Of a DNA stretch of 64,000 bases, positions 41,948-60,867 are shown in pieces. Made by a program: the position numbers and the translations under genes. The notes below the pieces were generated by a model, which saw only the letters and a list, made by a program, of their open reading frames with translations, ran no database searches and was not told the origin of the DNA. Source of the DNA: Candidatus Nomurabacteria bacterium (lineage in GTDB: Bacteria > Patescibacteriota > Minisyncoccia > Phycocordibacterales > UBA9973); NCBI GenBank assembly GCA_943354905.1, contig CALRDL010000002.1, positions 6,478 to 70,477 of the forward strand, in the 5' to 3' direction. The first letter of the stretch is position 1, and each line of letters starts with the position of its first letter.

Positions 41948-42115
41948 TATGCCCAGAAACACTGAGCAAAAGAAAAAAGAGATAGAAGGCATCCTGGCTC
42001 GATACGAGGCAGGAATGATTATTCTAAGGCAGAAGCGAGATAAGATTATTTCCACTTTTCTTGAGTTGTTGAAAGAGAAAAAACTTGAAGAATTAAGAAA
42101 TTCACTCAAACAATT

Positions 42116-44047: not shown

Positions 44048-44130
44048 TTGGCATAAGGTACATTTTCCGTGGCTTGTTTTGAGGGTTTTACCCTTGTGGT
44101 ATATAACTAGAAGTGCTAACTTTTAATTAT

Positions 44131-44877: not shown

Positions 44878-45010
44878 GGTTAAGCACATGCATTCTGTGC
44901 CTCGGGCATTTCCGCTAGGGTGTTCACGATTAAAGGACGAGTGCCTGACCCGAATTGCAATCCATAATCGAAAGCGAAAGCTACACACCAAACATAATAT
45001 TGAAAAACGT
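44878..45010. repeat. GC-rich repeat module (same family as 27727-27833 inverted and 43630-43690)
   Basis: The string gcgaacgggagggtgggttaagcacatgcattctgtgcctcgggcatttccgctagggtg..aaaggacgagtgcct..aattgcaa..agcgaaagc aligns with the other copies. Confidence 0.55.
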
Positions 45011-45171
45011 AGAGTGGGGATGGCGATAGTGCGACCCGTATATCTAAAACTATTTTAGAAAAATTCTAGCTAATCTCAATTCTTCATACGAATAATCCTC
45101 TCCCAAAATTTCGCGAACTGGAGCCAATAACATACCGCCAGTTTTTTTAAATGCATCTCTGATTATTTCCT

Positions 45172-46404
45172 TTAGTTTCTTATCTCTAATGGAGCCCTTT
45201 TAACACACTTGTCGCAATTTTCACAATTTACTTGCATATAGTCCTCGTTAAAATATCCGAGTAAGAATTTACGACGGCACTTGTACAAATTCCCATACTG
45301 GATTACTTTGTCCAAATTCTCTTGCGCATTTTTCTGTTCTTTTATATCGGTCATGCCTCGAATAAAATAGTCTTGCTTAAATTTATCAGCATAAGAGAAC
45401 AACAGTACACACCTTGACGGGGAACCATCTCTGCCTCCTCGACCAGTCTCTTGATAATATCCTTCGATGGATTTCGGCAGACTTTGATGGATGACAAGAC
45501 GCACATCTGGTTTGTCTATGCCCATACCGAAAGCGATAGTCGCAACCATGATCTGTACTTCATTTTTAATAAATTTGTCTTGATTATCCCTTCTAGTTGT
45601 CGCATCTAGCCCTGCATGATATGCTGCTGATTTATGGCCATAATGGTTTAAATTATGCACTAAATTCTCTGTGTCATTACGCGAGAAACAATATATTATG
45701 ACACTTTTGTTTTTATGACTTTGTAATAACGCAAGAATTAATTTTAAAGAATCTTTTTTAGGTATGACTTCATAGCTCAGATTTGGTCTATTGAAACTAG
45801 AAATAAAAACTTGGGGATTATCTAAATTAAGTTGTTTGACTATATCCTCACGGACCCTCGTGGTGGCAGTAGCAGTCAGAGCAATGATTGGAATCGTGGA
45901 GAATTTTTTTCGTAATAGTTTTAAATTTCTGTAGTCGGGCCTAAAATCATGACCCCATTCCGAAATACAATGTGCTTCGTCAATCGCGATTAAACTGATC
46001 TTTAGAGTGTGTAAAAATTCTTCGAAACCCGGCACTGACAATCTTTCGGGAGCTATGTATATAATTTTTAATTTTCCTGTTTTGGCTCGATTCATTACAT
46101 TCACAATCTCTATTTGAGAAAGTGTGCTGTTTATTAGCTCAGCGGTTATACTTTTTTTATTTAGGGCATCTACCTGATCTTTCATTAAAGAAATCAAGGG
46201 TGATATGACAACCGCCACCCCTTCCAGCATCATAGCTGGTAACTGAAAACACAGGGATTTTCCTCCACCTGTAGGCATTAGCACTACGCAATCTTTTCCA
46301 ACCAAAACTCGCTCAATTATTTCTTTCTGAAGTGGTCTAAATTCTTCGTAGCCAAAATGTTTTTTTAAAATACCTTGCAAGGCAGATTTATCTTGATTTA
46401 CCAT
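45172..46404 (-). CDS. recQ: ATP-dependent DNA helicase RecQ (short form, no HRDC)
   Basis: Contains GYEEFRPLQKEII, PTGGGKSLCFQLPA, DEAHCISEWGHDFRPDY, and the zinc-binding C...C..C..C. Confidence 0.85.
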   Translation of the reverse strand: MVNQDKSALQGILKKHFGYEEFRPLQKEIIERVLVGKDCVVLMPTGGGKSLCFQLPAMMLEGVAVVISPLISLMKDQVDALNKKSITAELINSTLSQIEIVNVMNRAKTGKLKIIYIAPERLSVPGFEEFLHTLKISLIAIDEAHCISEWGHDFRPDYRNLKLLRKKFSTIPIIALTATATTRVREDIVKQLNLDNPQVFISSFNRPNLSYEVIPKKDSLKLILALLQSHKNKSVIIYCFSRNDTENLVHNLNHYGHKSAAYHAGLDATTRRDNQDKFIKNEVQIMVATIAFGMGIDKPDVRLVIHQSLPKSIEGYYQETGRGGRDGSPSRCVLLFSYADKFKQDYFIRGMTDIKEQKNAQENLDKVIQYGNLYKCRRKFLLGYFNEDYMQVNCENCDKCVKRAPLEIRN

Positions 46405-46559
46405 ATTGGTATATTATACTTTATAGAAAAATAGTCTATATTTATTTTAGCTCTAGACTAGCTAACAAATGCTAAACTAGAGAATATGTTGAAAAGAAAA
46501 GCTCGTTTAGGAAAAAGTAAAGGAAAGATGAGTATAAGAAAAATACTTTGCAAACATAC

Positions 46560-46588
46560 TTGACAATACCCCCTAGGGGTATATACTC
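46560..46588 (+). promoter_or_regulatory. Promoter (TTGACA-N16-TATACT) whose spacer carries a perfect GC-rich palindrome ATACCCCCTAGGGGTAT; predicted CsoR operator
   Basis: Located immediately upstream of csoR-copA. A palindrome of this type resembles remembered CsoR boxes. Confidence 0.5.
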
Positions 46589-46593
46589 TCATT

Positions 46594-46857
46594 ATGCAAA
46601 CAAATAAGCCAAAACTTATACGCCATCTGAAAATAATTGAGGGGCAAATAAGGGGTCTACAAAATATGATAGAGAAAGATACTTATTGTATTGATGTTAT
46701 CACTCAAACATCTGCCATAAAACAATCACTCTCTAGTATAGAAGATACTCTCATGGAAGGACATCTTGGACATTGTGTGGTCAATCAAATAAAGAAAGGT
46801 CAAACAGAAAAAGCTACAGGTGAAATATTAAAAGTGTATCGCCTAAAACGCAAGTAG
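46594..46857 (+). CDS. csoR: CsoR/RcnR-family metal-sensing transcriptional repressor
   Basis: 87-aa four-helix family: L.RI.GQ..GL.....Y C.DV..Q..A.......H L..HC, which is the Cys-His-Cys metal site pattern. Confidence 0.75.
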   Translation: MQTNKPKLIRHLKIIEGQIRGLQNMIEKDTYCIDVITQTSAIKQSLSSIEDTLMEGHLGHCVVNQIKKGQTEKATGEILKVYRLKRK

Positions 46858-46871
46858 AATTTTATAAAATT

Positions 46872-49226
46872 ATGAACCACACACAAACATATAGAATAAA
46901 AGGAATGCACTGTGCCTCGTGTGCTGGGATTATTGAGAAAACTTTCAAAAAAATGGATGGTGTTGATTTGGCTGAAGTAAACTACGGAACTGAAACTGCG
47001 AAGGTTGCTTTTGATCCGTCAAAGACAAATCCTCACCATCTCTCGGAGAATATAGAAAAGCTTGGCTACTCTCTTGATATACCAGAAACAGCTGAAGCTA
47101 TGGGTATGTCTGAAAATGAGCATGCTACTCATTTAGGTTTGAACCAATCAAAAAAAGAGAAATTAGCTGAAGTCGCAGACATGCGATCAAAAGTTTTGTC
47201 TGCAATTCCGCTAGCCATCTTTAGTATTTTTGTTATGGGATGGGATATTTTTGCTCAATACGGAATAGTCTCGAAAATGAGTGTGACAATATATGAATTC
47301 GTACACCATATTCTTCCAATTTTTGCTACCTATGTACTCTTTGTGGTCGGAAAACCATATCTCCTTGGTTTTTATAGATTTTTGCGTTACGGCAAAGCCA
47401 ATATGGATACGCTTATCGGTATTGGTACTGTCTCGGCTTTTTTATACAGCTTTGCTGTTACGGCTTTTGAAGATGTTTTGAAGCCGTTTATAAATGTTGA
47501 TCACACTTACTATGATGTAACGATTGTCGTCATTACTTTTATCGCACTCGGAAAATATTTAGAAGCAAGGTCTAAAATAAAGACGGGAGATGCTATTGAA
47601 AAACTTCTCAATCTTCAGGCAAAAACCGCAATGGTTATTCGAGATGGAAAAGAAATGGAAATTTCAGTTGATCAAGTAGTTCACGGTGATTTAATTATTA
47701 TAAAACCCGGAGCTAAAATTCCGGTTGATGGTGTGATAACCGAGGGTATGTCTTATATCGATGAGTCGATGGTTACAGGAGAACCTATGCCTACTCAGAA
47801 AAAAGTTGGCGATAATGTTGTGTCAGGCACATTGAATACCAGCGGATCATTCACCTTTAAAGCTACTAAAGTGGGATCGGAAACCTTGCTTGCTCAGATT
47901 ATAAAAATGGTAGAGGAGGCACAAGGGAGCAAAGCACCAATCCAAGCTCTTGCGGATAAAATCTCAAGCGTTTTTGTGCCTGTTGTAATTGTTCTCTCAT
48001 TCTTGACTTTGGGATCATGGCTTTTGTTTGGAACTGGTCCTTTAGGATTTTCGCAAGCATTATCATTTGGGCTCGTTTCTTTTGTTGGAATTTTAGTCAT
48101 TGCTTGTCCTTGTGCGCTTGGTCTTGCAACGCCAACCGCTATTATTGTCGGAGTGGGTAAAGGAGCAAAAGAGGGTATTCTCGTAAAAGATGCGGCAACT
48201 CTCGAGAAGCTCCACAAAGTAGATATTGTCATTGTTGATAAAACAGGAACGATTACTATTGGAAAGCCGACACTTGTCAATATAGTTTTGGCTCCTCAAG
48301 GTCAAACCTTAGGAATTCAAAAAGGTTCGACCTTTTCCCACCAAGAGGTGGAATTTATATCCATACTCGCTTCTCTTGAGAAAAAATCTGAACATCCTAT
48401 TGCTCATGCGATTGTGAATTATGTCGAAGATCCTGTAAGGGCACAGGAAAAAAATATCTCAATATCAGATGTTTCAAACTTTGAAAGCATTCAAGGTAAG
48501 GGTCTTAAGGGAATAATTGACGGCACAGAATATTTTGTCGGAAATGCAAAACTGATACAAGGCCTTGGTGTATCATTTGATGCATCAAAAATGGAGCAAT
48601 ATACTTCGGAAGGCAAGACTCCTGTTATTCTCACAACCAAAGAAAGAGTTCTAGGATTTGTTATGGTTTCTGATGAGGTAAAAGTTGCATCAAAGCAGGC
48701 TATTACTGATCTCCACAAGCTCGGTATCAAAGTGATTATGCTTACAGGTGATGATGAAAAGGCAGCCAAGCACATTGCATCGCTTGTCGGTATTGATGAA
48801 GTAGTTGCGCATGTTTTACCACAAGACAAGCTCGCAAAAATTAAAGAGCTTCAGTCACAAGGGAAGATTGTCGCTATGGCAGGGGATGGTGTGAACGATG
48901 CACCTGCTTTGGCCCAAGCCGACGTAGGTATCGCTATGGGGACTGGAACGGATGTGGCGATTGAGTCGGCAGGAATTACACTACTCGGCGGAGATATTTC
49001 CAAACTTGTGAAAGCAATAAAACTTTCAAAAATGACTATGCGAGGTATTAAACAAAATCTTTTCTGGGCATTTATTTACAACATCGTGGGCATTCCACTT
49101 GCAGCTGGAGTTTTCTATCCCGTCTTCGGCTGGCTCCTATCACCTGTATTTGCAGGATTTGCTATGGCGATGTCGTCAGTGTCTGTGGTCGGAAATTCAC
49201 TGCGAATTAAAGGAATGAAATTATAA
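46872..49226 (+). CDS. copA: Copper-translocating P1B-type ATPase
   Basis: N-terminal HMA domain GMHCASCAG, TGE, CPC (ACPCALGLATP), DKTGTIT, and GDGVNDAP. Confidence 0.9.
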   Translation: MNHTQTYRIKGMHCASCAGIIEKTFKKMDGVDLAEVNYGTETAKVAFDPSKTNPHHLSENIEKLGYSLDIPETAEAMGMSENEHATHLGLNQSKKEKLAEVADMRSKVLSAIPLAIFSIFVMGWDIFAQYGIVSKMSVTIYEFVHHILPIFATYVLFVVGKPYLLGFYRFLRYGKANMDTLIGIGTVSAFLYSFAVTAFEDVLKPFINVDHTYYDVTIVVITFIALGKYLEARSKIKTGDAIEKLLNLQAKTAMVIRDGKEMEISVDQVVHGDLIIIKPGAKIPVDGVITEGMSYIDESMVTGEPMPTQKKVGDNVVSGTLNTSGSFTFKATKVGSETLLAQIIKMVEEAQGSKAPIQALADKISSVFVPVVIVLSFLTLGSWLLFGTGPLGFSQALSFGLVSFVGILVIACPCALGLATPTAIIVGVGKGAKEGILVKDAATLEKLHKVDIVIVDKTGTITIGKPTLVNIVLAPQGQTLGIQKGSTFSHQEVEFISILASLEKKSEHPIAHAIVNYVEDPVRAQEKNISISDVSNFESIQGKGLKGIIDGTEYFVGNAKLIQGLGVSFDASKMEQYTSEGKTPVILTTKERVLGFVMVSDEVKVASKQAITDLHKLGIKVIMLTGDDEKAAKHIASLVGIDEVVAHVLPQDKLAKIKELQSQGKIVAMAGDGVNDAPALAQADVGIAMGTGTDVAIESAGITLLGGDISKLVKAIKLSKMTMRGIKQNLFWAFIYNIVGIPLAAGVFYPVFGWLLSPVFAGFAMAMSSVSVVGNSLRIKGMKL

Positions 49227-49263
49227 ATGGTCGCATTATTAAATTAATTAATTAAAAAATATT

Positions 49264-49632
49264 ATGAAAAACATTCAGAAAATTATTCTATTTTTCACTT
49301 CTATTGTTCTCCTGCATTTTTTTGCTAACACTTTCGGCTTGTATGAGATGTCCTTTGTTTGGTTCGATAATATTTTGCATATATTAACTGGCATTGGATT
49401 CGGATTAGTGTGGCTGTGGGTTTTCAGAGGCTCATTAAAAGGAGCAATTATCTTTGTTGTTGCACTTGCTATACTCTGGGAACTCCTCGAGTTTGGTTTC
49501 TTGCAATTATTCCCAATCTACGCCTATAAATTAAGTATTTTTTCACCTAATATTGGAGAAGCTTTAGAAGATATCTTTTCTAATATATTCGGTGTAGCCA
49601 TCATGGCAATATATTTAAAATTAAAGGAATGA
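49264..49632 (+). CDS. Small membrane protein (hypothetical)
   Basis: Hydrophobic helices; the gene ends within the junction repeat TTAAAGGAATGAAATTATAA. Confidence 0.3.
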   Translation: MKNIQKIILFFTSIVLLHFFANTFGLYEMSFVWFDNILHILTGIGFGLVWLWVFRGSLKGAIIFVVALAILWELLEFGFLQLFPIYAYKLSIFSPNIGEALEDIFSNIFGVAIMAIYLKLKE

Positions 49633-49679
49633 AATTATAAAGGTCGAATATTATTAAATTAATCAAAAAATAAATTATT

Positions 49680-49901
49680 ATGAAACTTTCAAAAATATTT
49701 CATGTTATAGGTGCTATTGTCGGATGGGTTGGAGTTATTGCTCTTTTGAGCGCTTGGTTTGCAAGTAAAAATGGTTTAGTATTAGGAATGAGTGAGACGC
49801 ATCTTTTTATGGATGCAATAGTTCTTGTGCTTGTTGCTATCTGGCTTCAACTTGGAACAATTCACCACATGATGTTGGAGAAGACTGGGGAGAAAATATA
49901 A
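49680..49901 (+). CDS. 73-aa two-TM protein, paralogue family member 1 (C-terminal IHHMMLEKTGEKI)
   Basis: Near-identical family members lie at 51264..51485 and 52840..53061. Confidence 0.45.
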   Translation: MKLSKIFHVIGAIVGWVGVIALLSAWFASKNGLVLGMSETHLFMDAIVLVLVAIWLQLGTIHHMMLEKTGEKI

Positions 49902-49910
49902 CTATCATTT

Positions 49911-50303
49911 ATGATTACTCAAAAACTAAAAACCATATTTTTTATATCAATTCCAATCTTTATTGCTCACGGCATTGAAGAGTATTTTACTGGCTTATAT
50001 AATTTTGATTTTTTCTATCAATCTTTTTCTAATCCAAAATTAGTATTTGTAATTGTTGTTCCTGTCTTAGCAAATATTTTATTAATAGTTTCTTATGTAC
50101 TTGTTAAAAAAAATAAATGGGTGTTTGGTTTATCTTTTTTACTAGGGCTACTCTTTATTTTTGAATTAACTCATATCTATGAAGCTATTATGGTAAGGGG
50201 CTATTATCCTGGATTATATACTGCAATTCCTTTACTAATTGTCGGATTTCTTTTCTGGAAAGAATTATTAAAAAATTATAAAAGTCGAACATTATTAAAA
50301 TAA
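49911..50303 (+). CDS. Small membrane protein (hypothetical)
   Basis: Three or four TM helices. Confidence 0.3.
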   Translation: MITQKLKTIFFISIPIFIAHGIEEYFTGLYNFDFFYQSFSNPKLVFVIVVPVLANILLIVSYVLVKKNKWVFGLSFLLGLLFIFELTHIYEAIMVRGYYPGLYTAIPLLIVGFLFWKELLKNYKSRTLLK

Positions 50304-50314
50304 ATAAAAATAAC

Positions 50315-50938
50315 ATGAATAATAAAATTGTATTTGGAATAGGAGGAGTCGTAGTCGGTTTAGTTTTAGCAGGCATGTTTGGGGGAAGTATGTTTTCTGC
50401 ATTTAACAATGGGAATAATAGAATGATGGGTAACAATCAAAATACAGGAAGTAGTCAAATGATGGGGAGTATAGACAAACATTTCATCGAGCAGATGATT
50501 CCGCACCATGATGGAGCTGTTGCGATGGCAACACTCGCTCTCGAAAAATCAAAGCGTCCCGAAATTAAAACTCTCGCGAACGCAATAATTGAAGCTCAAA
50601 ATAAAGAAATAGTGGATATGCGAAGCTGGTATAAAAATTGGTTTGGTAAAAATGTTCCAAAAGAAAGTACAGGTATGATGGAGGGAGGAATGATGTCCGG
50701 GGGTGGAATGCATATGGGAGGAGATGAAGATATTAAGGCTCTAAAAAATGCGATAGATTTTGACAAGGCATTTCTTGAGGGGATGATCCCACATCATCAG
50801 TTAGCTATAATGATGGCACAGATGTTGAAGTCAGGAACTGATAGACCAGAGATGCTGACACTTGCGGATAATATCATCGAATCACAATCTAAAGAGATAA
50901 AACAAATGCAAGGTTGGTATAGTAATTGGTATAAATAA
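50315..50938 (+). CDS. DUF305-family protein (copper-resistance-associated four-helix protein)
   Basis: Two F.E.MIPHH repeats plus a Met/Gly-rich linker (MMEGGMMSGGGMHMGG). Confidence 0.7.
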   Translation: MNNKIVFGIGGVVVGLVLAGMFGGSMFSAFNNGNNRMMGNNQNTGSSQMMGSIDKHFIEQMIPHHDGAVAMATLALEKSKRPEIKTLANAIIEAQNKEIVDMRSWYKNWFGKNVPKESTGMMEGGMMSGGGMHMGGDEDIKALKNAIDFDKAFLEGMIPHHQLAIMMAQMLKSGTDRPEMLTLADNIIESQSKEIKQMQGWYSNWYK

Positions 50939-50988
50939 AATTATAAACATCTGTCGAGATTATTAAAAGTTAATTAAAATAAAAATAT

Positions 50989-51243
50989 ATGCATAATTCA
51001 TCATGTTGTGGGGGAAAAGGAGAAAAAGATAGGTCATGTTGTAATGCAGAAGATAAGTCTTGTTGCGGGGAAGGAAAAACATCTGGAAATATGGTCGTGG
51101 ATGTAGTGTGTGGCATGGAAGTTGATCCGAAAGAAACCAAGATTCAATTGGAGTACAAAAATAAAGTATATTACTTCTGTAACGTTGATTGCAAAAGTAA
51201 ATTTGAAAACGATCCTGAGAAATACGTTGTTAAAAATAATTAA
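50989..51243 (+). CDS. YHS/TRASH-domain metal-binding protein with an N-terminal Cys-rich segment
   Basis: Contains DVVCGMEVD....YKNKVYYFCNVDC (YHS domain) and an N-terminal SCCGG..SCCN..SCCGEG segment. Confidence 0.6.
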   Translation: MHNSSCCGGKGEKDRSCCNAEDKSCCGEGKTSGNMVVDVVCGMEVDPKETKIQLEYKNKVYYFCNVDCKSKFENDPEKYVVKNN

Positions 51244-51263
51244 TAAATTAATTAAAAAATATT

Positions 51264-51485
51264 ATGAAACTATCAAAATTATTTCACGTTCTAGCTGCTG
51301 TTGCGGGATGGGTTGGAGTTATTATGCTTTTCAGCGCTTGGTCTGCCGGAGAAAATGGTACAGTGTTTGGGTTTACACAAACACATCTTTTTACTGATGC
51401 AGCCATACTTGTTTTGGTTGCTATCTGGATGCAACTTGCTACTACGCATCATATGACGCTTGAGAAGACTGGAGAGAAAATATAA
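51264..51485 (+). CDS. 73-aa two-TM protein, paralogue family member 2
   Basis: MKLSKLFHVLAAVAGWVGVIMLFSAW...ATTHHMTLEKTGEKI. Confidence 0.45.
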   Translation: MKLSKLFHVLAAVAGWVGVIMLFSAWSAGENGTVFGFTQTHLFTDAAILVLVAIWMQLATTHHMTLEKTGEKI

Positions 51486-51510
51486 GATATTAAAAATAAA
51501 CCTTTAATTT

Positions 51511-52818
51511 ATGGATAAATCAAGCAAAAAATATGTAGTTATTATTCTGGGTATTTTCCTCATTGGTTTGAGTATTTTACTATTTGCTCGGCAAGTTGAG
51601 ATTTTATCACTTTTTAAATTCGTGTTCATTCGAGTTTTCGGTCTAGTGATCTCTCTTGGAGCTGCTGGATTCTTTATTTTCTGGATTATTCGCAAATTCC
51701 ATTCGTTGAAGATCGCTGCCATTTTCTCAGTTATTCTTGTTGGAGTTTCTTTCTTTCTTTTTATGCCTTATGCATTTCCGGAGCGACTGCAGTACCCTTT
51801 CTTTTTGAAAACATTCGGACCTTCTGATGGGCCGAGTCTCCCGCTCAAAAACGTGCTGACGTTCTTTTTGAAGCAATCAAATATGGAGCGGGTATCAGAT
51901 ATCGCCCGAGATCCTAATGATCTGCCACCACCAATCACACGTATCTCCCCTGAGCGCGTAAAAATTGAACTAGAAACACAAGAGGTAATCGCTGAAATGG
52001 CAGATGGGGTAAAGTTTAATTATTGGACATTTAATGGCACTGTGCCAGGACCGTTTCTGCGTGTGAGAGAGGGAGACACTGTTGATCTAACTCTTAAAAA
52101 CAGTGCTTCCAGTCTCCATCATCATAATATTGACCTTCATGCCGTTACCGGGCCTGGTGGCGGAGCGGCTGTTACTAATATTGCCCCTGGTGAATCCAAA
52201 ACCTTTACTTTCAAAGCCATAAATCCAGGACTGTACGTCTATCATTGTGCGCATCCAAATGTTGCTACCCATGATGCTCATGGTATGTATGGTCTTATTC
52301 TCGTCGAACCAAAGGAGGGTCTTCCAAAAGTTGATAAGGAATTTTATGTTATGCAAGGTGAATTTTATAGCACTGGTGGATTGGGAAAGAAAGGACTCCA
52401 GATCTTTGACGCTCAAAAGATGCTTGACGGAAAGCCTGAATATGTGGTCTTTAACGGTCGTGTTGGAGGATTAAACAGTAAAATGAAAGCTCAAGTTGGA
52501 GAAAAAATACGAATATTTGTGGGCAACGGAGGTGTGAACTTTATTTCCTCTTTTCATGTGATCGGAGAAATATTTGACACTGTGTATCCCGAAGGATCAA
52601 TGGGCGGAGCGATGTTTAAGAATGTTCAGACTACATTGGTTCCCGCAGGAGGATCAGCAATCGTCGAGTTTGATACCGAAGTACCCGGCAAGTATATACT
52701 AGTAGACCATGCTCTTTCAAGATTAGACCGTGGTGCCTGGGGGGTACTAGAACTTATTGGTGAACCAAGCAAAGATATCTTTGACGGAGTGTTTGATATT
52801 AATAATAAAAGTCATTAA
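51511..52818 (+). CDS. nirK: Copper-containing nitrite reductase (NirK-type two-domain cupredoxin) with an N-terminal membrane anchor
   Basis: HHHNIDLHAVTGPGGGA corresponds to the NirK HNIDFHAATG region holding T1 and T2 Cu His ligands. YHCAHPNVATHDAHGM has H-C adjacent and then C-x7-H-x4-M, the T1 Cu ligands. About three TM helices at the N-terminus. Confidence 0.6.
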   Translation: MDKSSKKYVVIILGIFLIGLSILLFARQVEILSLFKFVFIRVFGLVISLGAAGFFIFWIIRKFHSLKIAAIFSVILVGVSFFLFMPYAFPERLQYPFFLKTFGPSDGPSLPLKNVLTFFLKQSNMERVSDIARDPNDLPPPITRISPERVKIELETQEVIAEMADGVKFNYWTFNGTVPGPFLRVREGDTVDLTLKNSASSLHHHNIDLHAVTGPGGGAAVTNIAPGESKTFTFKAINPGLYVYHCAHPNVATHDAHGMYGLILVEPKEGLPKVDKEFYVMQGEFYSTGGLGKKGLQIFDAQKMLDGKPEYVVFNGRVGGLNSKMKAQVGEKIRIFVGNGGVNFISSFHVIGEIFDTVYPEGSMGGAMFKNVQTTLVPAGGSAIVEFDTEVPGKYILVDHALSRLDRGAWGVLELIGEPSKDIFDGVFDINNKSH

Positions 52819-52839
52819 ATTAGTTTATAAAAATATATT

Positions 52840-53061
52840 ATGAAAATATCAAAAATAATGCATGTTGCTAGTGTTATCGTGGGGTTGATCGGAGTGGTTG
52901 TCTTTGTTAGGACACTTGGAGTTCCGTCAGATGGAATGGTTTTTGGAATCGCAAAGTTTGATGCGCTATTTTGTGTAGCAATTCTTTTCCTTATTGCTAT
53001 ATGGGTTCAGATTGGAACAATTCACCACATGATGTTGGAGAAGACTGGGGAAATTATTTAA
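52840..53061 (+). CDS. 73-aa two-TM protein, paralogue family member 3
   Basis: ...IGTIHHMMLEKTGEII; followed by the junction repeat. Confidence 0.45.
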   Translation: MKISKIMHVASVIVGLIGVVVFVRTLGVPSDGMVFGIAKFDALFCVAILFLIAIWVQIGTIHHMMLEKTGEII

Positions 53062-53083
53062 AGGAATGAAATTATAACAATTT

Positions 53084-53491
53084 ATGAAAATTAAAACTAT
53101 TTGTATTTGTGGGTCTATGAAACTTAAAGATAGGATTATAGAAATAGGAGAAAAACTTAAAGTTTTGGGTTATGATGTTTATACTCCAAACATTTCAGAA
53201 ACTAATAATTATTCTGTAATGACAGAAGAAGAACAAAAAATTCATAAGAATAGAATGATTGTCGATCATCTTTATAAAATAAAAAAATCAGATACAATTT
53301 TAGTTATAAACGAAAAACTCAATGACATAGAAGGATATATCGGAGCAAATTCATTTCTTGAAATCGGATTTGCTTTTGCCCTAGAAAAGAAAATATTTTT
53401 GCTTAACAATATTCCTCAACAACCGAATTCAGTTGAGATAAAAGGTATGTTACCAGAGGTTATTAATGGTGACTTATTAAAAATAAAATAA
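53084..53491 (+). CDS. Nucleoside 2-deoxyribosyltransferase-like Rossmann protein (hypothetical)
   Basis: ICGSMK... at the N-terminus and a ...EIGFAFA.. acidic motif near the C-terminus resemble the NDT/Rcl-like family. This is weak. Confidence 0.3.
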   Translation: MKIKTICICGSMKLKDRIIEIGEKLKVLGYDVYTPNISETNNYSVMTEEEQKIHKNRMIVDHLYKIKKSDTILVINEKLNDIEGYIGANSFLEIGFAFALEKKIFLLNNIPQQPNSVEIKGMLPEVINGDLLKIK

Positions 53492-53495
53492 ATTT

Positions 53496-54113
53496 ATGAT
53501 TTCGTGGATAATTATTTGGTTAATTTTTTGGGTTAGTGCGCTAGGTTTTACTAGTTATCTTTTTAAAAAGCACAGGATTACTTATTATGAAAAATCTTGG
53601 CAACATACTCTTTTTTTCATAATCCTCTCACTAATCCTTTTTGTTGTTTATCAAAACCAGTTTTCTGTATATTTTACCAGTCTTTCCTTGTGGCATTTAA
53701 TGGCTGTTGTAGCTTTATTTATAATCTGGCTTCTTGTTCCAAATCTTTACAAAAATGATTACTACGCTAAAAAAGAAAGGTTTGGTTATCAGTTACCAAA
53801 GTTTTTTGAAATTCTTTTTCAAGATATTTGTTTCTTAGGCGGGCTACTTACTTTCGGACTTTCTCCCGTTTTTTTTGGTTTAGTATTTTTTGTAGTTCAC
53901 ATACCTGCCGTATTTCTCCTCCCGAAAAAATTTGCTCTTTTTCCAATAATCGGCTCACTCTTTGGTGGAATAATTTTTGCATATTTGCAGTCTCAGGGAA
54001 TTTTAGGATTTTTAGTTGCATTTTTAATACATTTATCATTTTGGAGTTCCTTACATTACGCACTCTCACAATCAAAAAGTGGCTTTTTGGGGATAATGCC
54101 ACTAAAAAGATAA
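53496..54113 (+). CDS. Integral membrane protein (hypothetical)
   Basis: Six hydrophobic segments. Confidence 0.3.
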   Translation: MISWIIIWLIFWVSALGFTSYLFKKHRITYYEKSWQHTLFFIILSLILFVVYQNQFSVYFTSLSLWHLMAVVALFIIWLLVPNLYKNDYYAKKERFGYQLPKFFEILFQDICFLGGLLTFGLSPVFFGLVFFVVHIPAVFLLPKKFALFPIIGSLFGGIIFAYLQSQGILGFLVAFLIHLSFWSSLHYALSQSKSGFLGIMPLKR

Positions 54114-54205
54114 ATTTTATGAAAAATCAAACACAACAAAACAATAAAAACCAATTAGCGATTTTTGAAAATTTTAAGATATAAAAAAGTAAGAACGAAA
54201 ATTAT

Positions 54206-54941
54206 ATGAAAAAATTAAATTCACAAATTGTCATATATAAAGACCAAAATGGAAATATTAAAATAGATGTGCGTTTTGATGGTGAAAATGTGTGGCTCAC
54301 ACAGGATTTGATGGCAGAGCTTTTTGGAAAGGGAAGATCTACAATCACAGAACATATTCAGAACATATTTAAAGAAGGAGAATTGGATGAAAAACTGGTA
54401 AGTCGGGATTTCCGACATACCACTAAGCATGGGGCAATAAAAGGTAAAACACAAGACTCTTCTATAAAATATTATAATCTTAAAGTTATAATTGCTGTAG
54501 GATATAGAGTTAAATCATCTCAAGGTACGAGATTTAGGCAATGGGCGACAGAAAGATTAGGGGAGTATGTTTTGAAAGGTTTTGTGGTGGATAGCGAACG
54601 ATTGAAAAATCCAGATTTACCTTTTAATTATTTTGAAGAACTTGAAAGAACTGTAGCAGATATACGCACTAGCGAAAAAGTTTTTTATCGTAAAATCACT
54701 GATATTTATGCTACGAGTATTGATTACGATCCGACGAGCGATGCAAGTAAATGAAAGAAATATTTTACAAGATGCAGGAAAGGTATCTCATCAGCTGATG
54801 GTAGAACTTGCTGAAAAGAAGTTTGATGAGTATAAACAAATAGAAGCCAAGCAAGATGTGGATTTTGATGAAGTAATACTTAAAGCGCTTGAGAGCGTAA
54901 AAAAGAAGGATATAAAAGTAGTTAAAGATAAGAAGTTATAA
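54206..54941 (+). pseudogene. rhuM: RhuM-family (virulence-associated/Bro-N-related) gene, frameshifted near 54,750
   Basis: The RhuM N-part VIIAVGYRVKSSQGTRFRQWATERL.EYV.KGF is in ORF 54206..54754. The C-part ...ERNILQDAGKVSHQLMVELAEKKFDEYK is in ORF 54708..54941 in another frame. Confidence 0.5.
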
Positions 54942-54966
54942 ATTATAAATATGGTAAAATAAAATT

Positions 54967-55500
54967 ATGATATATTTCGTACGACATGGAGAAACTGAGT
55001 CAAATATAAGAGGTGTTTTTGCTGGGCAAAAAGACGATTCTATTCTTACTGAAAAAGGAAAAGAACAAGCAAGAATTACAGCTCAAAATATAAAATCTCA
55101 AATTCCAAAAATTGATAGAGTTATCTGTTCACCATTAAAAAGAACAGTTGAGACGGCACAAATAATTGCAAAAGATATTAACTTTGATTTATATAAAATA
55201 GAAATTGATAACCGTATTATTGAACACGACACAGGGAGTATGACTGGGACTCCGTTCGCAGGTGTTTCGTCTTTCGCTTTAACAACTTGTGATGGAGCAG
55301 AAGATAGTGATAAATTTCGTGACAGAGTATTTTCTTTTTTCAAAGATTTATCAGAAAATCCTGAAACTATTTTAGTTGTTAGTCATGGAGCAGTAGGGAG
55401 AATGTTAGAAACTATCAAAAAAAATGGTGATACAAAATTACTCTACGACATTCCTGTTTGGGATAATGCTTCCGTGACTAAAATTGATTGGATTAAATAA
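54967..55500 (+). CDS. Histidine phosphatase family protein (second copy in the window)
   Basis: MIYFVRHGETESNIRGVFAGQ.D..LT.KG..QA (RHGE catalytic motif) and a distal SHGA. Confidence 0.65.
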   Translation: MIYFVRHGETESNIRGVFAGQKDDSILTEKGKEQARITAQNIKSQIPKIDRVICSPLKRTVETAQIIAKDINFDLYKIEIDNRIIEHDTGSMTGTPFAGVSSFALTTCDGAEDSDKFRDRVFSFFKDLSENPETILVVSHGAVGRMLETIKKNGDTKLLYDIPVWDNASVTKIDWIK

Positions 55501-55503
55501 TTT

Positions 55504-55875
55504 ATGGACAAAAATCAGTTAGCAATTTTTGAAAATTTTAAGATTAGGCGACATTTTGATGAGAAAGAAGAAAAATGGTATTTTTCTGTGGTGGATATTG
55601 TGGCGGCGTTGACAGATTCTATTAATCCAACAGATTATTTAAAGAAGTTACGAAAGAGAGATTTAGAGGTTGGAACATACATAGGGACAAATTGTCCCCA
55701 TGTAGAAATGCTTACGAAAACTGGAAAATATAGGAAAACATTAGCTGGAAACCCAGAAAATTTACTGCGTATTATTCAAGCTATACCATCTAAAAAAGCC
55801 GAACCTATAAAACTTTGGTTGGCAAAGGAGAATTTTTTATTAGCAAAACAAAAAGAAGAAAGCATCGCGTCTTAA
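55504..55875 (+). CDS. Bro-N domain protein. A 5' fragment of the same gene (MKNQ..NQLAIFENFKI) is duplicated at 54118-54183
   Basis: NQLAIFENFKIRRHFDEKEEKWYFSVVDIVAALTDS is the Bro-N consensus. Confidence 0.5.
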   Translation: MDKNQLAIFENFKIRRHFDEKEEKWYFSVVDIVAALTDSINPTDYLKKLRKRDLEVGTYIGTNCPHVEMLTKTGKYRKTLAGNPENLLRIIQAIPSKKAEPIKLWLAKENFLLAKQKEESIAS

Positions 55876-55882
55876 TTGACGA

Positions 55883-56938
55883 TTGCACGATGTGATTTCG
55901 CTAAATCATATGAAAACATATACATTCCATGTTTCTGGCACACATTGCGCATCATGCAAAATCTTGATTGAAGATATTTTGAACGAGCAAGATTTTATTA
56001 AAAAATCAAAAGTGGATTTGAAGAAAGAAACTGTGGAAATTGAAACTGATGGCGAAAAAGATCCCGAAGAAATCATAAACGTATTAAATGAAAAAATAAA
56101 ACTAAATGGTTATATGCTTAGTGTCGTTAGGCAAGACCTAACGACAGAGGATAGCGATGTAATTTGGAAAGCTCTGCCTATTGGGCTCGCTTTTCTAGTC
56201 CTCTTTTTTATTTTACAAAAGTCCGGTATTCTAAATCTCGGATTTGGGAGCGAGGCAACACCTACAACCAGTTTCATGATTGGTCTTATTGCTTCAGTGT
56301 CTTCCTGTCTTGCTGTTGTCGGTGGGCTTGTGTTGTCTCTTTCAGCAAAGGTATCACAAGATAAAATTAACGACACTAAAACTTTTCTGCTTTTTCACAT
56401 AGGAAGACTGTTCAGTTTTGCACTGCTCGGAGGAGTGTTGGGGATAATGGGGCAAGCGATAGGGATCAATGTTACTTTTACTGCAGTTTTGGGACTCCTA
56501 GCTTCAATGGTGATGTTGGTGCTTGGATTAAATTTAGTGGGAATATTTGCGAAAAACAAAATTGCACTATCTTCTGACATTTTTCAAAAAGTTTTTTCTA
56601 TCTTTAAAAAAATAGAACATAAAACACTCACTCCACTTTTAGTTGGCTTTGGAACATTCTTTTTACCTTGCGGATTTACTCAAGCGATGCAAGTCGCCGC
56701 TTTATCTAGTGTCTCATTTCTTTCGGGAATGCTTATTATGTTTGCTTTCGCTCTCGGGACTTTGCCGATGCTCATATTACTCTCATTTGGTTCGGCATCT
56801 TTTGCTCATAGTAAACATGGCAAACACGCACCTCTCTTCTTTAAATCTGCAGGCATAGTCGTGATTGGGCTTGGAATATTTGGATTACTGACAGGACTCA
56901 CAGGTTTGGGTATTATTAATCCACTATTTAGTATTTAA
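55883..56938 (+). CDS. HMA-domain (GTHCASC) fused to a multi-TM permease (DsbD_2/UreH-like); putative metal transporter
   Basis: An N-terminal ferredoxin-like HMA with the CxxC motif, then six to eight TM helices with FLPCGFTQ. Confidence 0.5.
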   Translation: MHDVISLNHMKTYTFHVSGTHCASCKILIEDILNEQDFIKKSKVDLKKETVEIETDGEKDPEEIINVLNEKIKLNGYMLSVVRQDLTTEDSDVIWKALPIGLAFLVLFFILQKSGILNLGFGSEATPTTSFMIGLIASVSSCLAVVGGLVLSLSAKVSQDKINDTKTFLLFHIGRLFSFALLGGVLGIMGQAIGINVTFTAVLGLLASMVMLVLGLNLVGIFAKNKIALSSDIFQKVFSIFKKIEHKTLTPLLVGFGTFFLPCGFTQAMQVAALSSVSFLSGMLIMFAFALGTLPMLILLSFGSASFAHSKHGKHAPLFFKSAGIVVIGLGIFGLLTGLTGLGIINPLFSI

Positions 56939-56956
56939 TTTTGATATAATTACCAG

Positions 56957-57358
56957 ATGAACAAAATAGTTTTAATTATTATAACTCTTGGACTTGTTGT
57001 CGTTCTCGGCATCGTATTTTGGGGTGGTGGTTCAAAACCACAGACAGGTGAAAATGTTGCAGACGAAGGACAAAGTGTTGAAATAAAAAATGGTGTCCAA
57101 TATATCACCATTGATGCGAAAGGCGGGTATTTCCCCAAAGTCGTTACAGCTCAAGGTGGTATACCTACAAAACTTATTGTAAAAACAAACGGTACTTTTG
57201 ACTGCTCGGCATCGCTTGTAGTCCGTTCTGTCGGATTTCAAAAGATTTTACCCCCAACAGGAGAAACAGAAATTGACCTAGGCATTCCTAAATCAGGCGA
57301 GCCAGTCGTAGGGGTCTGCGGTATGGGAATGTATAATTTTCAAATTAATTTTAGTTAG
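56957..57358 (+). CDS. TM-anchored cupredoxin-like domain protein
   Basis: An N-terminal TM helix plus a small beta domain with C...GVCGMGMY. It is frequently paired with HMA permeases. The family assignment is tentative. Confidence 0.35.
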   Translation: MNKIVLIIITLGLVVVLGIVFWGGGSKPQTGENVADEGQSVEIKNGVQYITIDAKGGYFPKVVTAQGGIPTKLIVKTNGTFDCSASLVVRSVGFQKILPPTGETEIDLGIPKSGEPVVGVCGMGMYNFQINFS

Positions 57359-57459
57359 GATTATTTTTGTTCATAATAGTCCGCACAATAAATAAAAACT
57401 CCGAAAGGCGTTTTTATTTTGCAAAAGATGTCGAAATAAACTAGTATTAACTATTGTAA

Positions 57460-57532
57460 GCCGTTATAGCTCAGGTAGTAGAGCACGTCATTGGTAATGA
57501 CGAGGTCAACAGTGCAAATCTGTTTAACGGCT
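57460..57532 (+). tRNA. tRNA-Thr(GGT)
   Basis: Acceptor GCCGTTA/TAACGGC, D-arm GCTCAGGTAGTAGAGC, anticodon stem-loop CGTCA-TTGGTAA-TGACG, T-arm AACAG-TGCAAAT-CTGTT (an atypical T-loop). Confidence 0.55.
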
Positions 57533-57625
57533 CATTTTCTGTCATTTATTTGCACTTAAAACTAGTTTCAAGTATAATATATTCAAATTTGAAACAAATT
57601 TGAAAGTCAATATTATAAAATATTT

Positions 57626-58291
57626 ATGATAAGCAAAAAACAAAAAGAAATATACGATTTCATTGTGTCTTATGCAAAAGACAATGGGTACGCCCCATCG
57701 CTAGAAGAGATAGCTAAAAATTTCTCTTTTTTGGCGTACCCCTCTTCTGCTCACTACCATGTAAAAAAATTACAAGATGAAGGATACATTGAAAGAGAAT
57801 CAAATATTCCTAGATCAATTGGTATATATAGAGATAAAACAATAAAAACTCCTTTTCTAAAAACTACAGGGTTAGATTCAATAAGAATACCGATTCTAGG
57901 AGCCGTAAATGCTGGCCCCGCTACTATTTTTGCAGAGGAAAATATTGAGGGATATTTAAAAGTTTCTCGTAGTTTATTAAATAATAAAAATGAAGTTTTT
58001 GCTTTGAGAGTTGAGGGTGACTCAATGAACAAGGCAAGGATTGATCGTAAGAATATAGAAACAGGTGATTTTGTTTTAATTGATTCTGAATATAAAAATC
58101 CAAAAAACGGTGACCTTGTTTTGTCTGTAATTGACGGATGTGCAAACATTAAGAAGTTTGAAAAAAATGATAAAACTGGCGAGGTAAGACTGGTGTCAGA
58201 ATCTACAAATTCTACACACAAACCGATTTTTGTATCTAGTAAAGACGATTTTATGATAAATGGAAAAATTATTTTAGTAGTTAAAAAATAG
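57626..58291 (+). CDS. lexA: LexA repressor
   Basis: The N-terminal wHTH (QKEIYDFI...GYAPSLEEIA) and the S24 peptidase core (...VEGDSMNKARI... with Lys in the ...K.. context). Confidence 0.8.
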   Translation: MISKKQKEIYDFIVSYAKDNGYAPSLEEIAKNFSFLAYPSSAHYHVKKLQDEGYIERESNIPRSIGIYRDKTIKTPFLKTTGLDSIRIPILGAVNAGPATIFAEENIEGYLKVSRSLLNNKNEVFALRVEGDSMNKARIDRKNIETGDFVLIDSEYKNPKNGDLVLSVIDGCANIKKFEKNDKTGEVRLVSESTNSTHKPIFVSSKDDFMINGKIILVVKK

Positions 58292-58326: not shown

Positions 58327-60867
58327 ATGTATATGATGAACAATGGAATCAAAAAAAAGCCCTTAACTTACATAAGCCTGTTTAGTAGTGCTGGCGTTGG
58401 TTGTTATGGATTTAAACTTGAAGATTTTGAATGTGTTGCGACAAATGAAATTATAGAAAGACGTTTGAATGTACAAAAACATAATAATAAATGTCGTTAT
58501 GAAAGTGGTTATATAGCTGATGATATCCTAAAAGAGGAAACCAAAAATAAAATAAGAAAAGAACTCGAATTTTGGAAGAAAAATCATGATGTTAAAGAAC
58601 TTGATGTTTTAATTTCAACTCCACCCTGCCAAGGAATGTCAGTTGCAAATCATAAAAAGGGTGACGAGTTAGCTCGTAATTCTTTGGTTATAGAATCTAT
58701 TAAACTTGTTGACGAAATTAGACCTAAATTCTTTATCTTTGAAAATGTTAGGGCTTTTTTGAATAGTTTATGCACTGATACTGATGGAAAAGATAAAAAA
58801 ATTCGTGAAGCCATCGAATTAAATTTAGGAGGTAAATATAATATACATTACCAAGTAATAAATTTTAAAGATTATGGTAACCCGTCTAGCAGAACTAGAA
58901 CTCTTGTTCTCGGTACAAGAAAAGACTTGCAAGAAATAACCCCATTAGATTTTATGCCAACTTTGCAAAAAGAAAAAACAATTCGGGAAGTTATCGGTCA
59001 TTTACCAAGTTTAAAAGTTATGGGAGAAAGTGATACGAAAGACATTTATCATAATTTTAGATCATATGCAGATCGTATGCGAAATTGGATAAGTGGAACA
59101 AAAGAAGGTGAGTCGGCTTTTGATAACAAAAATCCAAAATTTCGTCCACATAAAATAATTGATGGGGAGCTAGTTTCTAATACGCAAAAAAATGCTGATA
59201 AATACAGTAGGTGTTTCTGGAATAAAGTTTGCCCTTGTATTCATACAAGAAATGATATTCTCGCTAGTCAAGCAACCATACATCCATCCGATGATCGTGT
59301 TTTTAGTGTAAGAGAGTTAATGAAACTTATGTCTATTCCAGACTCATATAGATGGACTGGTATATCTGAAGAAAAACTTAATAACTTATCACCTGAAGAA
59401 AAATTAAAATTCTTTAAGAAAGAAGAAGTGAATATACGTCAATCAATCGGTGAAGCTGTTCCCACAATTATTTTTCAACAAATCGCTAAGAATATAAAAA
59501 GATCTATCCAGCGAAATATTTTAGATGAAAAAGATATAGAAAAAATTATCATTAACAACAATCTAACTGAAATAGAGAATTTAAAATCTTTTCTTAATGA
59601 GCATTTAGTTAAATATTCATTTGCCGAATTATCAAAAATAGTAGAATTAGCTAATGCCTATAGATTTAAACACGCGGCTTATTATACTCGTCAAGATATA
59701 TGCTTTACCGTTATTAAAGATTTACCTGATGCTTCAAATTTCAATTCAATTAAAATTTTAGAGCCATCCGTTGGGGCAGGAAACTTTTTACCCCTTTTAA
59801 TTGAAAAATACAAATCGATTTCAAGTGTCCAGATTGATGTAATAGATATAGATAAAAACGCAATTGATATACTAAAAATCTTAATCAAAAAACTAAATAT
59901 CCCAGTAAATATAAAAATCAATTTTCTAAACGAAGATTTTCTCTTATTTGGACAGAATGGCCTTTTCTCAAATGAGAATGTCCACTACGATATAGTCGTC
60001 GGCAATCCTCCCTTTGGAAAAATTTCTGACAACGAATCATTACTCACGGAATACAAAAGAGGAAAATTTAATACAAAAACTAGTAATTTGTTTTCCTTTT
60101 TTCTCGAGAAATCCATTAATCATGCAGATACTGTTGCATTAATAATACCAAAAAGTTTTTTATCATCTCCTGAATTTGATGCTACTCGAGAGTTTGTTTC
60201 TAAATTTGCAGTGTCAAAAATCACAGACTACGGAGAAAAAGGATTTAAGGGGGTCAAAATAGAAACGATAAGTCTTATTATAAATACAAAAAAAACAAGT
60301 ATAAATAATCAGACTTTAGTTGAATCTTATATAAAAAATGAATTTGGTTTTAAAGACCAAAATTATATTTGCTCTAAAGAATTTCCTTATTGGCTAGTGT
60401 ATCGAGATTCATTTTTTGACGAAGTAGCTTCAAGGCTTAGTTTTGGAGTATTCACTGCATATAGAGATAGGCAAATAACTAAACAGATTACAAAAAATAA
60501 AGGACAAATACGAGTTCTCAAATCAAGAAATATTGGAAGTAATAAAATTGTAAATATTCCAGATTATGATTCCTATGTAGATGAGTATAAAAATCTATCG
60601 ATAGCAAAATATATAAACCACGACGAAGCTGTTCTTGTTCCAAATCTCACATATAATCCTAGAGCCTGTTTTCTTCCAGAAAATACCATCGTGGATGGTT
60701 CTGTCGCAATTCTTATTCCTATAAATAAAACAAAAATTACAAAAAATGATCTCGCATATTACAATTCAGAGGAATTTGTTGGATTCTATCGAGTTGCTAG
60801 AAATTATGGTACCAGATCTCTCAATATAGATAACAATTCAGTTTTCTTCTTTGGGTTAAAAGTCTAA
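58327..60867 (+). CDS. Fused DNA methyltransferase: N-terminal C5-cytosine MTase plus C-terminal N6-adenine/N4 (NPPF) MTase
   Basis: FSSAGVGCYG (motif I), PPCQGMSVAN (PCQ motif IV), FIFENVRAF (ENV), then a second domain with EPSVGAGNFL and VVGNPPFGK. Confidence 0.65.
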   Translation: MYMMNNGIKKKPLTYISLFSSAGVGCYGFKLEDFECVATNEIIERRLNVQKHNNKCRYESGYIADDILKEETKNKIRKELEFWKKNHDVKELDVLISTPPCQGMSVANHKKGDELARNSLVIESIKLVDEIRPKFFIFENVRAFLNSLCTDTDGKDKKIREAIELNLGGKYNIHYQVINFKDYGNPSSRTRTLVLGTRKDLQEITPLDFMPTLQKEKTIREVIGHLPSLKVMGESDTKDIYHNFRSYADRMRNWISGTKEGESAFDNKNPKFRPHKIIDGELVSNTQKNADKYSRCFWNKVCPCIHTRNDILASQATIHPSDDRVFSVRELMKLMSIPDSYRWTGISEEKLNNLSPEEKLKFFKKEEVNIRQSIGEAVPTIIFQQIAKNIKRSIQRNILDEKDIEKIIINNNLTEIENLKSFLNEHLVKYSFAELSKIVELANAYRFKHAAYYTRQDICFTVIKDLPDASNFNSIKILEPSVGAGNFLPLLIEKYKSISSVQIDVIDIDKNAIDILKILIKKLNIPVNIKINFLNEDFLLFGQNGLFSNENVHYDIVVGNPPFGKISDNESLLTEYKRGKFNTKTSNLFSFFLEKSINHADTVALIIPKSFLSSPEFDATREFVSKFAVSKITDYGEKGFKGVKIETISLIINTKKTSINNQTLVESYIKNEFGFKDQNYICSKEFPYWLVYRDSFFDEVASRLSFGVFTAYRDRQITKQITKNKGQIRVLKSRNIGSNKIVNIPDYDSYVDEYKNLSIAKYINHDEAVLVPNLTYNPRACFLPENTIVDGSVAILIPINKTKITKNDLAYYNSEEFVGFYRVARNYGTRSLNIDNNSVFFFGLKV

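Follow-up and report, generated by a model that had tools for sequence, protein, structure and literature searches.

A copper nitrite reductase gene within a csoR-copA copper gene array of a Candidate Phyla Radiation bacterium

The 64,000-nucleotide stretch of contig CALRDL010000002.1 analysed here (the window; GC content ~35%) contains a set of copper-handling genes in which lies nirK, a gene for a copper nitrite reductase. The array, ~10.8 kb in length, occupies positions 46594–57358 with all of its genes on the + strand, between recQ (45172–46404, − strand) and a tRNA-Thr gene. Its intergenic gaps are 3–50 nt, with one exception of 92 nt. The copper genes that the initial annotation had placed between recQ and tRNA-Thr/lexA were all recovered at their positions and on the + strand. 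The nearest relatives of the window proteins come from metagenome-assembled genomes (MAGs) of the Candidate Phyla Radiation (CPR, Patescibacteria), including Zambryskibacteria, Nomurabacteria, Doudnabacteria and Paceibacterota; judged by these homologues, the host is probably a CPR bacterium near Zambryskibacteria and Nomurabacteria. A near-identical contig from another sample (locus L001), in a second public assembly, shows 2 differences in 13426 bases. Public samples with the window contig include ERZ27280224 and ERR5863117. The features of the array and its downstream flank are as follows, with s73 denoting a family of 73-residue proteins.

46560–46587, + strand: csoR promoter, −35 element TTGACA at 46560–46565, 16-nt spacer, −10 element TATACT at 46582–46587 (promoter scan)
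46566–46582, no strand assigned: putative type-2 CsoR operator, ATACCCC-CTA-GGGGTAT (TAC-N9-GTA), filling the spacer and overlapping the −10 element
46594–46857, + strand: csoR, Cu(I)-sensing repressor (PF02583, E = 2.4e-24; best NCBIfam match of RicR/CsoR type)
46872–49226, + strand: copA, P1B-1 Cu(I)-exporting ATPase with a single HMA domain at the N-terminus (TIGR01511)
49264–49632, + strand: 122-residue polytopic membrane protein (hydrophobic segments; no Pfam match; weak precomputed DUF2238 match)
49680–49901, + strand: s73a, 73-residue two-helix membrane protein, first of three paralogous copies
49911–50303, + strand: HXXEE-family membrane protein (PF13787, E = 1.2e-8)
50315–50938, + strand: DUF305/CopM-type extracytoplasmic copper-binding protein, two CopM repeats and an N-terminal anchor (PF03713, NF049983)
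50989–51243, + strand: small protein combining a Cys-rich N-terminus, in which there are three CC pairs, with a YHS/TRASH metal-binding domain (PF04945, E = 5e-13)
51264–51485, + strand: s73b, second copy, 70% identical to s73a
51511–52818, + strand: nirK, class II (AniA-like) copper nitrite reductase, 435 residues (TIGR02376; AniA, PDB entry 1kbv)
52840–53061, + strand: s73c, third copy, of a second subtype, 48% identical to s73a
53084–55875, + strand: 2.8-kb block with no evident copper role (Pfam matches)
55883–56938, + strand: HMA-DsbD_2 (CcdA-like) fusion membrane protein (PF13386, E = 2.5e-31; PF00403)
56957–57358, + strand: CupA-like membrane-anchored Cu(I) chaperone, cupredoxin fold, 133 residues (match to Streptococcus pneumoniae CupA)
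57390–57422, + strand: terminator-like hairpin followed by a U-run (−12.4 kcal/mol, z = −2.76)
57460–57533, + strand: tRNA-Thr(GGU), downstream boundary of the island (tRNA call)
57626–58291: lexA, downstream flank

The nitrite reductase

The 435-residue protein had been proposed to be of the NirK type, with the full set of type-1 (T1) and type-2 (T2) copper ligands, rather than a generic multicopper oxidase, and the comparison bears this out. It scores 332.7 bits against TIGR02376 (curated equivalog cut-off 296.3), covering model positions 4–322 of 326, whereas the multicopper-oxidase models (CopA, CueO and laccase) give no more than 55 bits against cut-offs above 470. The best solved relative is Neisseria AniA (1kbv; E = 2.8e-106), followed by the Hyphomicrobium enzyme and other three-domain NirKs. 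Residues 134–423 align end to end with AniA and are identical to it at most positions over these 290 residues. The T1 ligands His205, Cys246, His254 and Met259, the T2 ligands His210, His245 and His400, and the catalytic residues Asp208 and His349 together with Ile351 are all present, and these positions are invariant or nearly so in an alignment of 20 CPR homologues. The protein carries the motif HCA, not the HCH of multicopper oxidases, and is without their four HxH motifs. By its sequence it is a true class II (AniA-like) NirK, with a predicted activity of reducing nitrite to nitric oxide (NO).

The membrane anchor expected by the initial annotation was also found. Residues 1–90 contain three hydrophobic segments, with the anchor at about 8–86 and a conserved linker at about 86–133. 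Because positive charges mark both the N-terminus (MDKSSKK) and a loop (RKFHSLK), and the catalytic domain comes after three hydrophobic segments, this domain is predicted to lie outside the membrane. In most homologues the start lies 27 residues further on and there are two hydrophobic segments, the window copy having an extra one. A shorter start at the position usual in the homologues was ruled out, the codon there being GTT; the start stands as the ATG at 51511, or possibly an in-frame TTG at codon 19. The AlphaFold model of the full-length protein was poor (mean pLDDT 63) and was not used for the linker. The enzyme thus described shares with AniA and the CPR NirKs its catalytic core, copper ligands, catalytic residues and membrane attachment. 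The CPR homologues are 60–90% identical to it and have the same N-terminal anchor; AniA differs in that the window NirK is anchored by transmembrane helices and a conserved 45-residue linker, with no lipid anchor.

Such an enzyme had been taken to be rare in streamlined genomes, which our searches contradict. A word-filtered protein search scored 8000 candidates, all with E ≤ 1e-30; among the 120 matches listed, most are ~400–420 residues long with the same anchor, and CPR copper nitrite reductases account for the few that carry a named source. When one genome per species was scanned with a pattern, 398 stretches encoding a relative were obtained, and the best 80 of these are nearly all titled as CPR or Patescibacteria MAGs. 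Published analyses of CPR nirK date from 2017 and 2025 (Danczak 2017, PMC5581439; PMC12931201), and the window NirK belongs to this published clade. No satisfying respiratory role has been found for CPR NirK, the genomes being without electron-transport chains (PMC5581439). We also note an anchored nirK on a gammaproteobacterial plasmid, pWTT2411 of Methylophaga pinxianii (NZ_CP095734.1, 170967–172277; L169), whose product has 57.6% identity over residues 29–431 and the same anchor and linker. It lies between two inverted cadR/cation-transporter pairs and adjoins an NnrS fragment, so the anchored type is not confined to the CPR and is found here again among metal-resistance genes.

The csoR operator and the copper-handling proteins

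The sequence TTGACA-N16-TATACT, which had been read as the csoR promoter, is the best σ70-like match in 46300–57700 (11.4 kb) and agrees at 11 of 12 positions. Its spacer had been described as carrying a perfect palindromic CsoR box. The box is present and its core equals that of the Streptomyces lividans operators, but the palindrome is imperfect: the 17-mer differs from its own reverse complement at 3 positions and forms a pseudo-palindrome of the 7-3-7 type, in which arms of 7 nt flank a centre of 3 nt. Read in the other register, it holds a perfect CCCCTAGGGG core. The 15-nt core TACCCCCTAGGGGTA is letter-identical to the experimentally defined CsoR operators of S. lividans copZA1 and copZA2, and the site fits the TAC-N9-GTA rule of type-2 CsoR sites, with two G/C tracts (PMC3902906). 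The initial annotation had proposed looking for the same palindrome upstream of other copper genes. There is none in the window, where the operator is unique (~0.02 chance matches expected at ≤3 mismatches); the looser pattern TACCC-N1-9-GGGTA, with 0.13 matches expected, likewise finds this site alone.

The same box does recur at orthologous promoters. Among the csoR genes of the loci that we fetched, it lies between TTGAC(A) and the −10 element in 23 non-redundant cases, in most of which the encoded CsoR is at least ~49% identical to that of the window; a second CsoR subfamily, 35–43% identical, is mostly without it. The window CsoR scores 86 bits against PF02583 (cut-off 22.8) and has a complete x-C-H-C ligand set (Cys32, His57 and Cys61), with Tyr31 adjoining Cys32. 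As far as sequence can support such an assignment, the site is a type-2 CsoR operator at the promoter of csoR itself. The csoR ATG lies 6 nt past the −10 element in the window and, as read by eye, 6–7 nt past it in most of the orthologous promoters (including those of L007, L022, L029, L053, L087, L089, L092, L116, L154 and L163), a spacing which suggests that the csoR mRNA is leaderless in these CPR lineages.

CopA scores 579 bits against TIGR01511 (cut-off 397) and has the motifs CASC14 (in the HMA domain), TGE302, CPC412, DKTGT456, YN736 and MAMSS765. The DUF305/CopM protein scores 123.6 bits against NF049983 (cut-off 90), with E = 8.9e-47 for PF03713. The HMA-DsbD_2 protein has CASC in its HMA domain and Cys142 and Cys263 within hydrophobic stretches; its likely start is the ATG at 55910, where the public gene call also starts. 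The 133-residue protein had been called a cupredoxin, and as a blue-copper carrier (azurin, pseudoazurin or plastocyanin) it was rejected, since it has no histidine and can form no His-Cys-His-Met site. Its alignment with S. pneumoniae CupA (2mry/4f2e; E = 3.2e-7) places Cys83 and C121-G-M-G-M over the Cu(I) ligands of that protein, and residues 1–27 form a hydrophobic segment. By these features it is a membrane-anchored Cu(I) chaperone of the CupA type and not an electron carrier; lacking histidine and having the Cys...CxMxM ligand set of CupA, it was rejected as the electron donor of NirK. The HMA-DsbD_2 and CupA-like pair follows copA in many related islands (e.g. L003, L024, L032, L045, L087 and L092).

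The three s73 copies are 48–70% identical to one another. Their family has 795 members in a 90%-clustered collection; among those listed, almost every one has a length of exactly 73 residues, none has a Pfam match, and all that carry a source name are called hypothetical. At 50% identity there are only 77 clusters among 1.84 billion proteins. His8, Trp55, His62, His63 and Glu67 are invariant and Met64 is nearly so. The predicted structure is a two-helix hairpin (pLDDT 90.6), in which, by our reading of the model, His8 and His62-His63-Met64 would lie at the same face of the membrane. We collected 86 copper loci anchored on the s73 gene, 50 of them of at least 8 kb. The gene stands beside csoR, copA, DUF305, YHS, HMA-DsbD_2 or CupA-like genes in 77 of the 86 and in 47 of the 50 longer loci, often ~40 nt past copA or 10–300 nt past csoR. 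On the strength of its gene neighbourhoods, s73 is a signature gene of CPR CsoR/CopA operons and is found almost only there; this context and the conserved histidine and methionine residues suggest that it takes part in copper handling. Ahead of each of the three copies stands a similar AT-rich intergenic sequence (repeat family D2). One of the differences in L001, at its position 8945 (window 52933), falls within the Gly32 codon of s73c, and the public call there is of a 31-residue product. The variant most likely creates a stop codon, by which the third copy looks dispensable.

The array has several counterparts among known systems. In common with the csoR-copZA and csoR-copA operons of Mycobacterium tuberculosis, Bacillus subtilis, S. 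lividans and Listeria monocytogenes, it has an x-C-H-C CsoR, a type-2 TAC-N9-GTA operator overlapping the promoter and a P1B-1 CopA encoded downstream. It differs from the csoR-copZA operons in having no separate CopZ and in having the CupA-like chaperone, HMA-DsbD_2, CopM, YHS and 73-residue proteins, as well as in its length, its nitrite reductase gene and its apparently leaderless csoR mRNA. With copY-cupA-copA of S. pneumoniae it shares a membrane-anchored Cu(I) chaperone of cupredoxin fold (Cys...CxMxM) beside a Cu(I) ATPase, but its regulator is CsoR and not CopY, its CopA has a classical HMA domain and not a CupA-like one, and its CupA-like protein is paired with HMA-DsbD_2. RicR of M. 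tuberculosis is a CsoR paralogue which controls mmcO, lpqS, mymT and socAB. The likeness here is that of a CsoR-family repressor set over an extracytoplasmic multi-copper enzyme and copper-induced small proteins; the differences are that the enzyme in the window is NirK and not a multicopper oxidase, and that the genes form one contiguous array and not a scattered regulon.

Linkage of nirK to copper genes and its interpretation

Linkage was scored as a csoR, copA, DUF305, HMA-DsbD_2, CupA-like or s73 gene within 10 kb of nirK. Such a gene is present in 19 of the 80 related nirK loci that were fetched, the nearest being at most 2.4 kb away in 16, and the density of copper genes around nirK drops threefold from the 0–2.5 kb bin to the 7.5–10 kb bin. 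The arrangements vary. nirK lies downstream of copA on the same strand in eight loci (L013, L019, L024, L029, L030, L036, L045 and L067), with the order copA-x-DUF411(CopG)-nirK in L019 and L030 and csoR-copA-...-nirK in L024, L029, L036 and L045. L036 also has the order s73-HXXEE-s73-nirK of the window. In L007 and L022 csoR and nirK are divergent, with a CsoR box in the gap between them. We regard the linkage of nirK to copper genes as a recurrent arrangement that is not random, though only a minority of loci have it. In the CPR literature that we searched on nirK, copA and copper, no mention was found of nirK within a csoR-copA array.

Other neighbours of CPR nirK are more common. Among the related loci L003–L082, a divergently oriented ribonucleotide reductase gene adjoins it in 21, and a 121-residue Cys-rich ArsR-family regulator gene ends ~10 nt before it in 19 of the 80; these two are the commonest other neighbours, and both are absent from the window array. 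An FAD-linked oxidase gene follows nirK in nine loci. A conserved 176-residue gene product beside ribonucleotide reductase (8 loci) is a putative cobalamin adenosyltransferase.

In our view, the most probable interpretation of the data described above, which we hold with moderate confidence, is that the array is the CsoR-controlled copper operon of a CPR bacterium which has acquired a genuine nirK, and that copper-gated co-expression lets the copper exported by CopA load the enzyme. At low copper, apo-CsoR would bind the operator that fills the spacer between the −35 and −10 elements and block RNA polymerase, and Cu(I) at Cys32, His57 and Cys61 would release it. A transcript, probably leaderless, would then run from the csoR ATG through the close co-directional genes to the hairpin at 57390–57422. 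CopA would pump Cu(I) out of the cytoplasm, and the CopM/DUF305 protein, the YHS protein, HMA-DsbD_2, the CupA-like chaperone and the three s73 proteins would bind or relay it at the membrane. NirK, on the outer face of the membrane and with two coppers per subunit, would be made when and where copper is exported, so that it could be metal-loaded, and the loaded enzyme would reduce nitrite to NO. In favour of a single operon are the common strand, the short gaps, the absence of any further regulator gene from the array (in contrast to the 19 related loci with an ArsR-like gene just before nirK) and the hairpin itself, which is the only intergenic terminator-like structure found on the + strand after the csoR promoter; the other + strand matches in the island all lie within coding sequence. 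In Bradyrhizobium diazoefficiens, copper status and CsoR both influence nirK, an effect which is indirect, with the genes unlinked (PMC10457146); in the window nirK stands in the same co-directional array as csoR.

Several observations weigh against this interpretation. A promoter-like match (9 of 12 positions) at 51460–51488, just upstream of nirK, may be an internal promoter for that gene, although such matches occur at chance rate. In 61 of the 80 nirK loci no copper gene lies within reach, and a true nirK is present in only one of the 86 s73-anchored islands. In L003 and L032 nirK is upstream of csoR/copA, from which CsoR control would not be a general rule. The partner genes nirV and nor, which the initial annotation suggested looking for, are not among the 40 other window open reading frames (ORFs) surveyed with Pfam, and neither are cytochromes or blue-copper proteins; the window thus surveyed yielded no electron donor for NirK. 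Lastly, the region is mosaic and variable (restriction-modification, serine recombinase, Fic, rhuM and Bro-N genes), so the co-location could partly reflect gene traffic.

Carried further, the last point gives the alternative that survives best, which we regard as possible though unlikely: the co-location would be incidental, with nirK and its flanking s73 copies as separately transcribed cargo of a recombination-prone island, and copper regulation would be without functional bearing on the enzyme. The mosaic surroundings (which also include a methyltransferase gene, the restriction-modification system being of type I and rhuM a pseudogene) and the weak promoter-like site fit this, as does the number of unlinked nirK loci. 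An unrelated 2.8-kb block splits the copper genes; repeats D1, D2 (intergenic) and D7 (35 nt) suggest rearrangement; and compact related islands with the order csoR-copA-s73-DUF305-HMA-DsbD_2-CupA-like (e.g. L092 and L093) are without nirK. On the other hand, the linkage recurs in 19 loci, mostly at 2.4 kb or less, in several gene orders and in lineages whose NirKs are only 60–65% identical, and such recurrence in varied orders and diverged lineages makes hitch-hiking in a single event unlikely. The gap between s73b and nirK is, moreover, only 25 nt, with no terminator between them.

It is improbable, in our estimation, that NirK serves copper defence, either by oxidizing Cu(I) with nitrite when oxygen is low or by acting as a copper sink outside the cytoplasm, in the manner of the multicopper oxidases of related islands. 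Eleven of the 86 s73-anchored islands do carry a multicopper oxidase-type ORF; in the eight of these that no contig end truncates, the HCH and four HxH motifs of a three-domain enzyme are present, and all three Cu-oxidase domains are found in the L084 product. The want of a satisfying respiratory role for CPR NirK and of a blue-copper or cytochrome donor in the window also speaks for such a function. Against it, Asp208, His349 and Ile351, the residues particular to nitrite reduction, are invariant across the 20 CPR NirKs, which accords with selection on nitrite chemistry more than on mere copper binding, and we know of no report of Cu(I)-oxidizing or copper-sink activity for any NirK. Furthermore, nirK in the copper islands of L036 (6922–9672) and L006 (8044–11224) is immediately preceded by the gene of a three-domain, Met-rich multicopper oxidase. 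Since these two loci carry both enzymes side by side, the idea of NirK as a simple replacement of the island multicopper oxidase is weakened.

The remaining alternative, that what has been mistaken for NirK is an inactive relative or a two-domain multicopper oxidase of generic type, could appeal to its Pfam matches, which are to the generic Cu-oxidase_3 and Cu-oxidase_2 only, and is refuted at the sequence level by the equivalog score, the identity to AniA and the ligand and HCA motifs given above.

A stronger form of the operon interpretation is doubtful, in which CPR bacteria would have tied nitrite reduction to copper status: in lineages such as this, NirK would be made only when CsoR senses Cu(I) and would be loaded by a dedicated CopA/CupA-like export route, and the s73 proteins would be membrane partners of CopA of a novel class, relaying or sensing copper. 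A more radical version still would have NirK oxidize exported Cu(I) with nitrite, as an oxygen-independent counterpart of CueO.

CPR NirK presents a puzzle in that the gene is widespread in cells without respiratory chains. Its recurrent position in CsoR/CopA operons gives a testable idea of the conditions for its synthesis (copper sufficiency or copper stress) and of how an enzyme on the outer face obtains its metal. The analysis also singles out an unannotated 73-residue family as belonging to the core of CPR copper operons. We consider the novelty moderate: nirK is wired into a CsoR/CopA array together with an uncharacterized small-protein family, and existing knowledge is not overturned. 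The major parts all belong to known families, and the operator is a textbook one.

Neighbouring and minor features

The 2.8-kb block at 53084–55875 encodes a 135-residue nucleoside deoxyribosyltransferase-like protein, a 205-residue membrane protein, a split rhuM, a histidine phosphatase and a Bro-N protein. Its first two genes have no counterpart in any other copper island examined, and the block probably entered as a secondary insertion. The D7 direct repeat (91% identical copies at 54146–54180 and 55510–55544) corresponds to the 5' end of the Bro-N gene, of which the first copy encodes only a 21-codon stub. The two copies bracket rhuM, broken into two ORFs (54206–54941; Pfam profile positions 2–115 and 210–249 of 252), and the histidine phosphatase gene; the bracketed segment looks like the scar of an insertion or recombination within the copper island. 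A scan of the island with Rfam found only the tRNA-Thr at its edge, and Megablast of the island against plasmids gave nothing beyond a trivial 87-nt match.

The mosaic surroundings extend over 29262–43576 and 58327–60867. The first of these holds the type I restriction-modification system, with two S subunits, and the large serine recombinase and Fic genes; in the second, downstream of lexA, the methyltransferase is a fused C5/Eco57I-type protein. Between the Fic gene and recQ (43880–45170) there is no convincing long ORF, and a 29-nt inverted repeat (44050–44078/44303–44331, 93% complementary) surrounds a 53-residue zinc-finger-like ORF; this segment may be what is left of a mobile element.

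ARAGORN predicts tRNA-Ser genes at 41146–41233 (− strand) and 41334–41423 (+ strand), with anticodons ACT and GCT respectively, neither of which reaches the Rfam gathering threshold. The 3' end of the serine recombinase ORF (39621–41198) overlaps the first of the two, which also has an unusual anticodon and may for these reasons be a false call or the remnant of an attachment site. A tRNA-Ile with anticodon TAT (UAU) lies at 20587–20661; to our knowledge tRNA-Ile(UAU) is uncommon in bacteria, in which AUA is usually read by a lysidine-modified CAU tRNA. Finally, a cluster at 7135–11416 encodes three CYTH-domain proteins, a nucleoside diphosphate kinase, a histidine phosphatase and an HD-domain protein, together with an IS200-type transposase-like gene.

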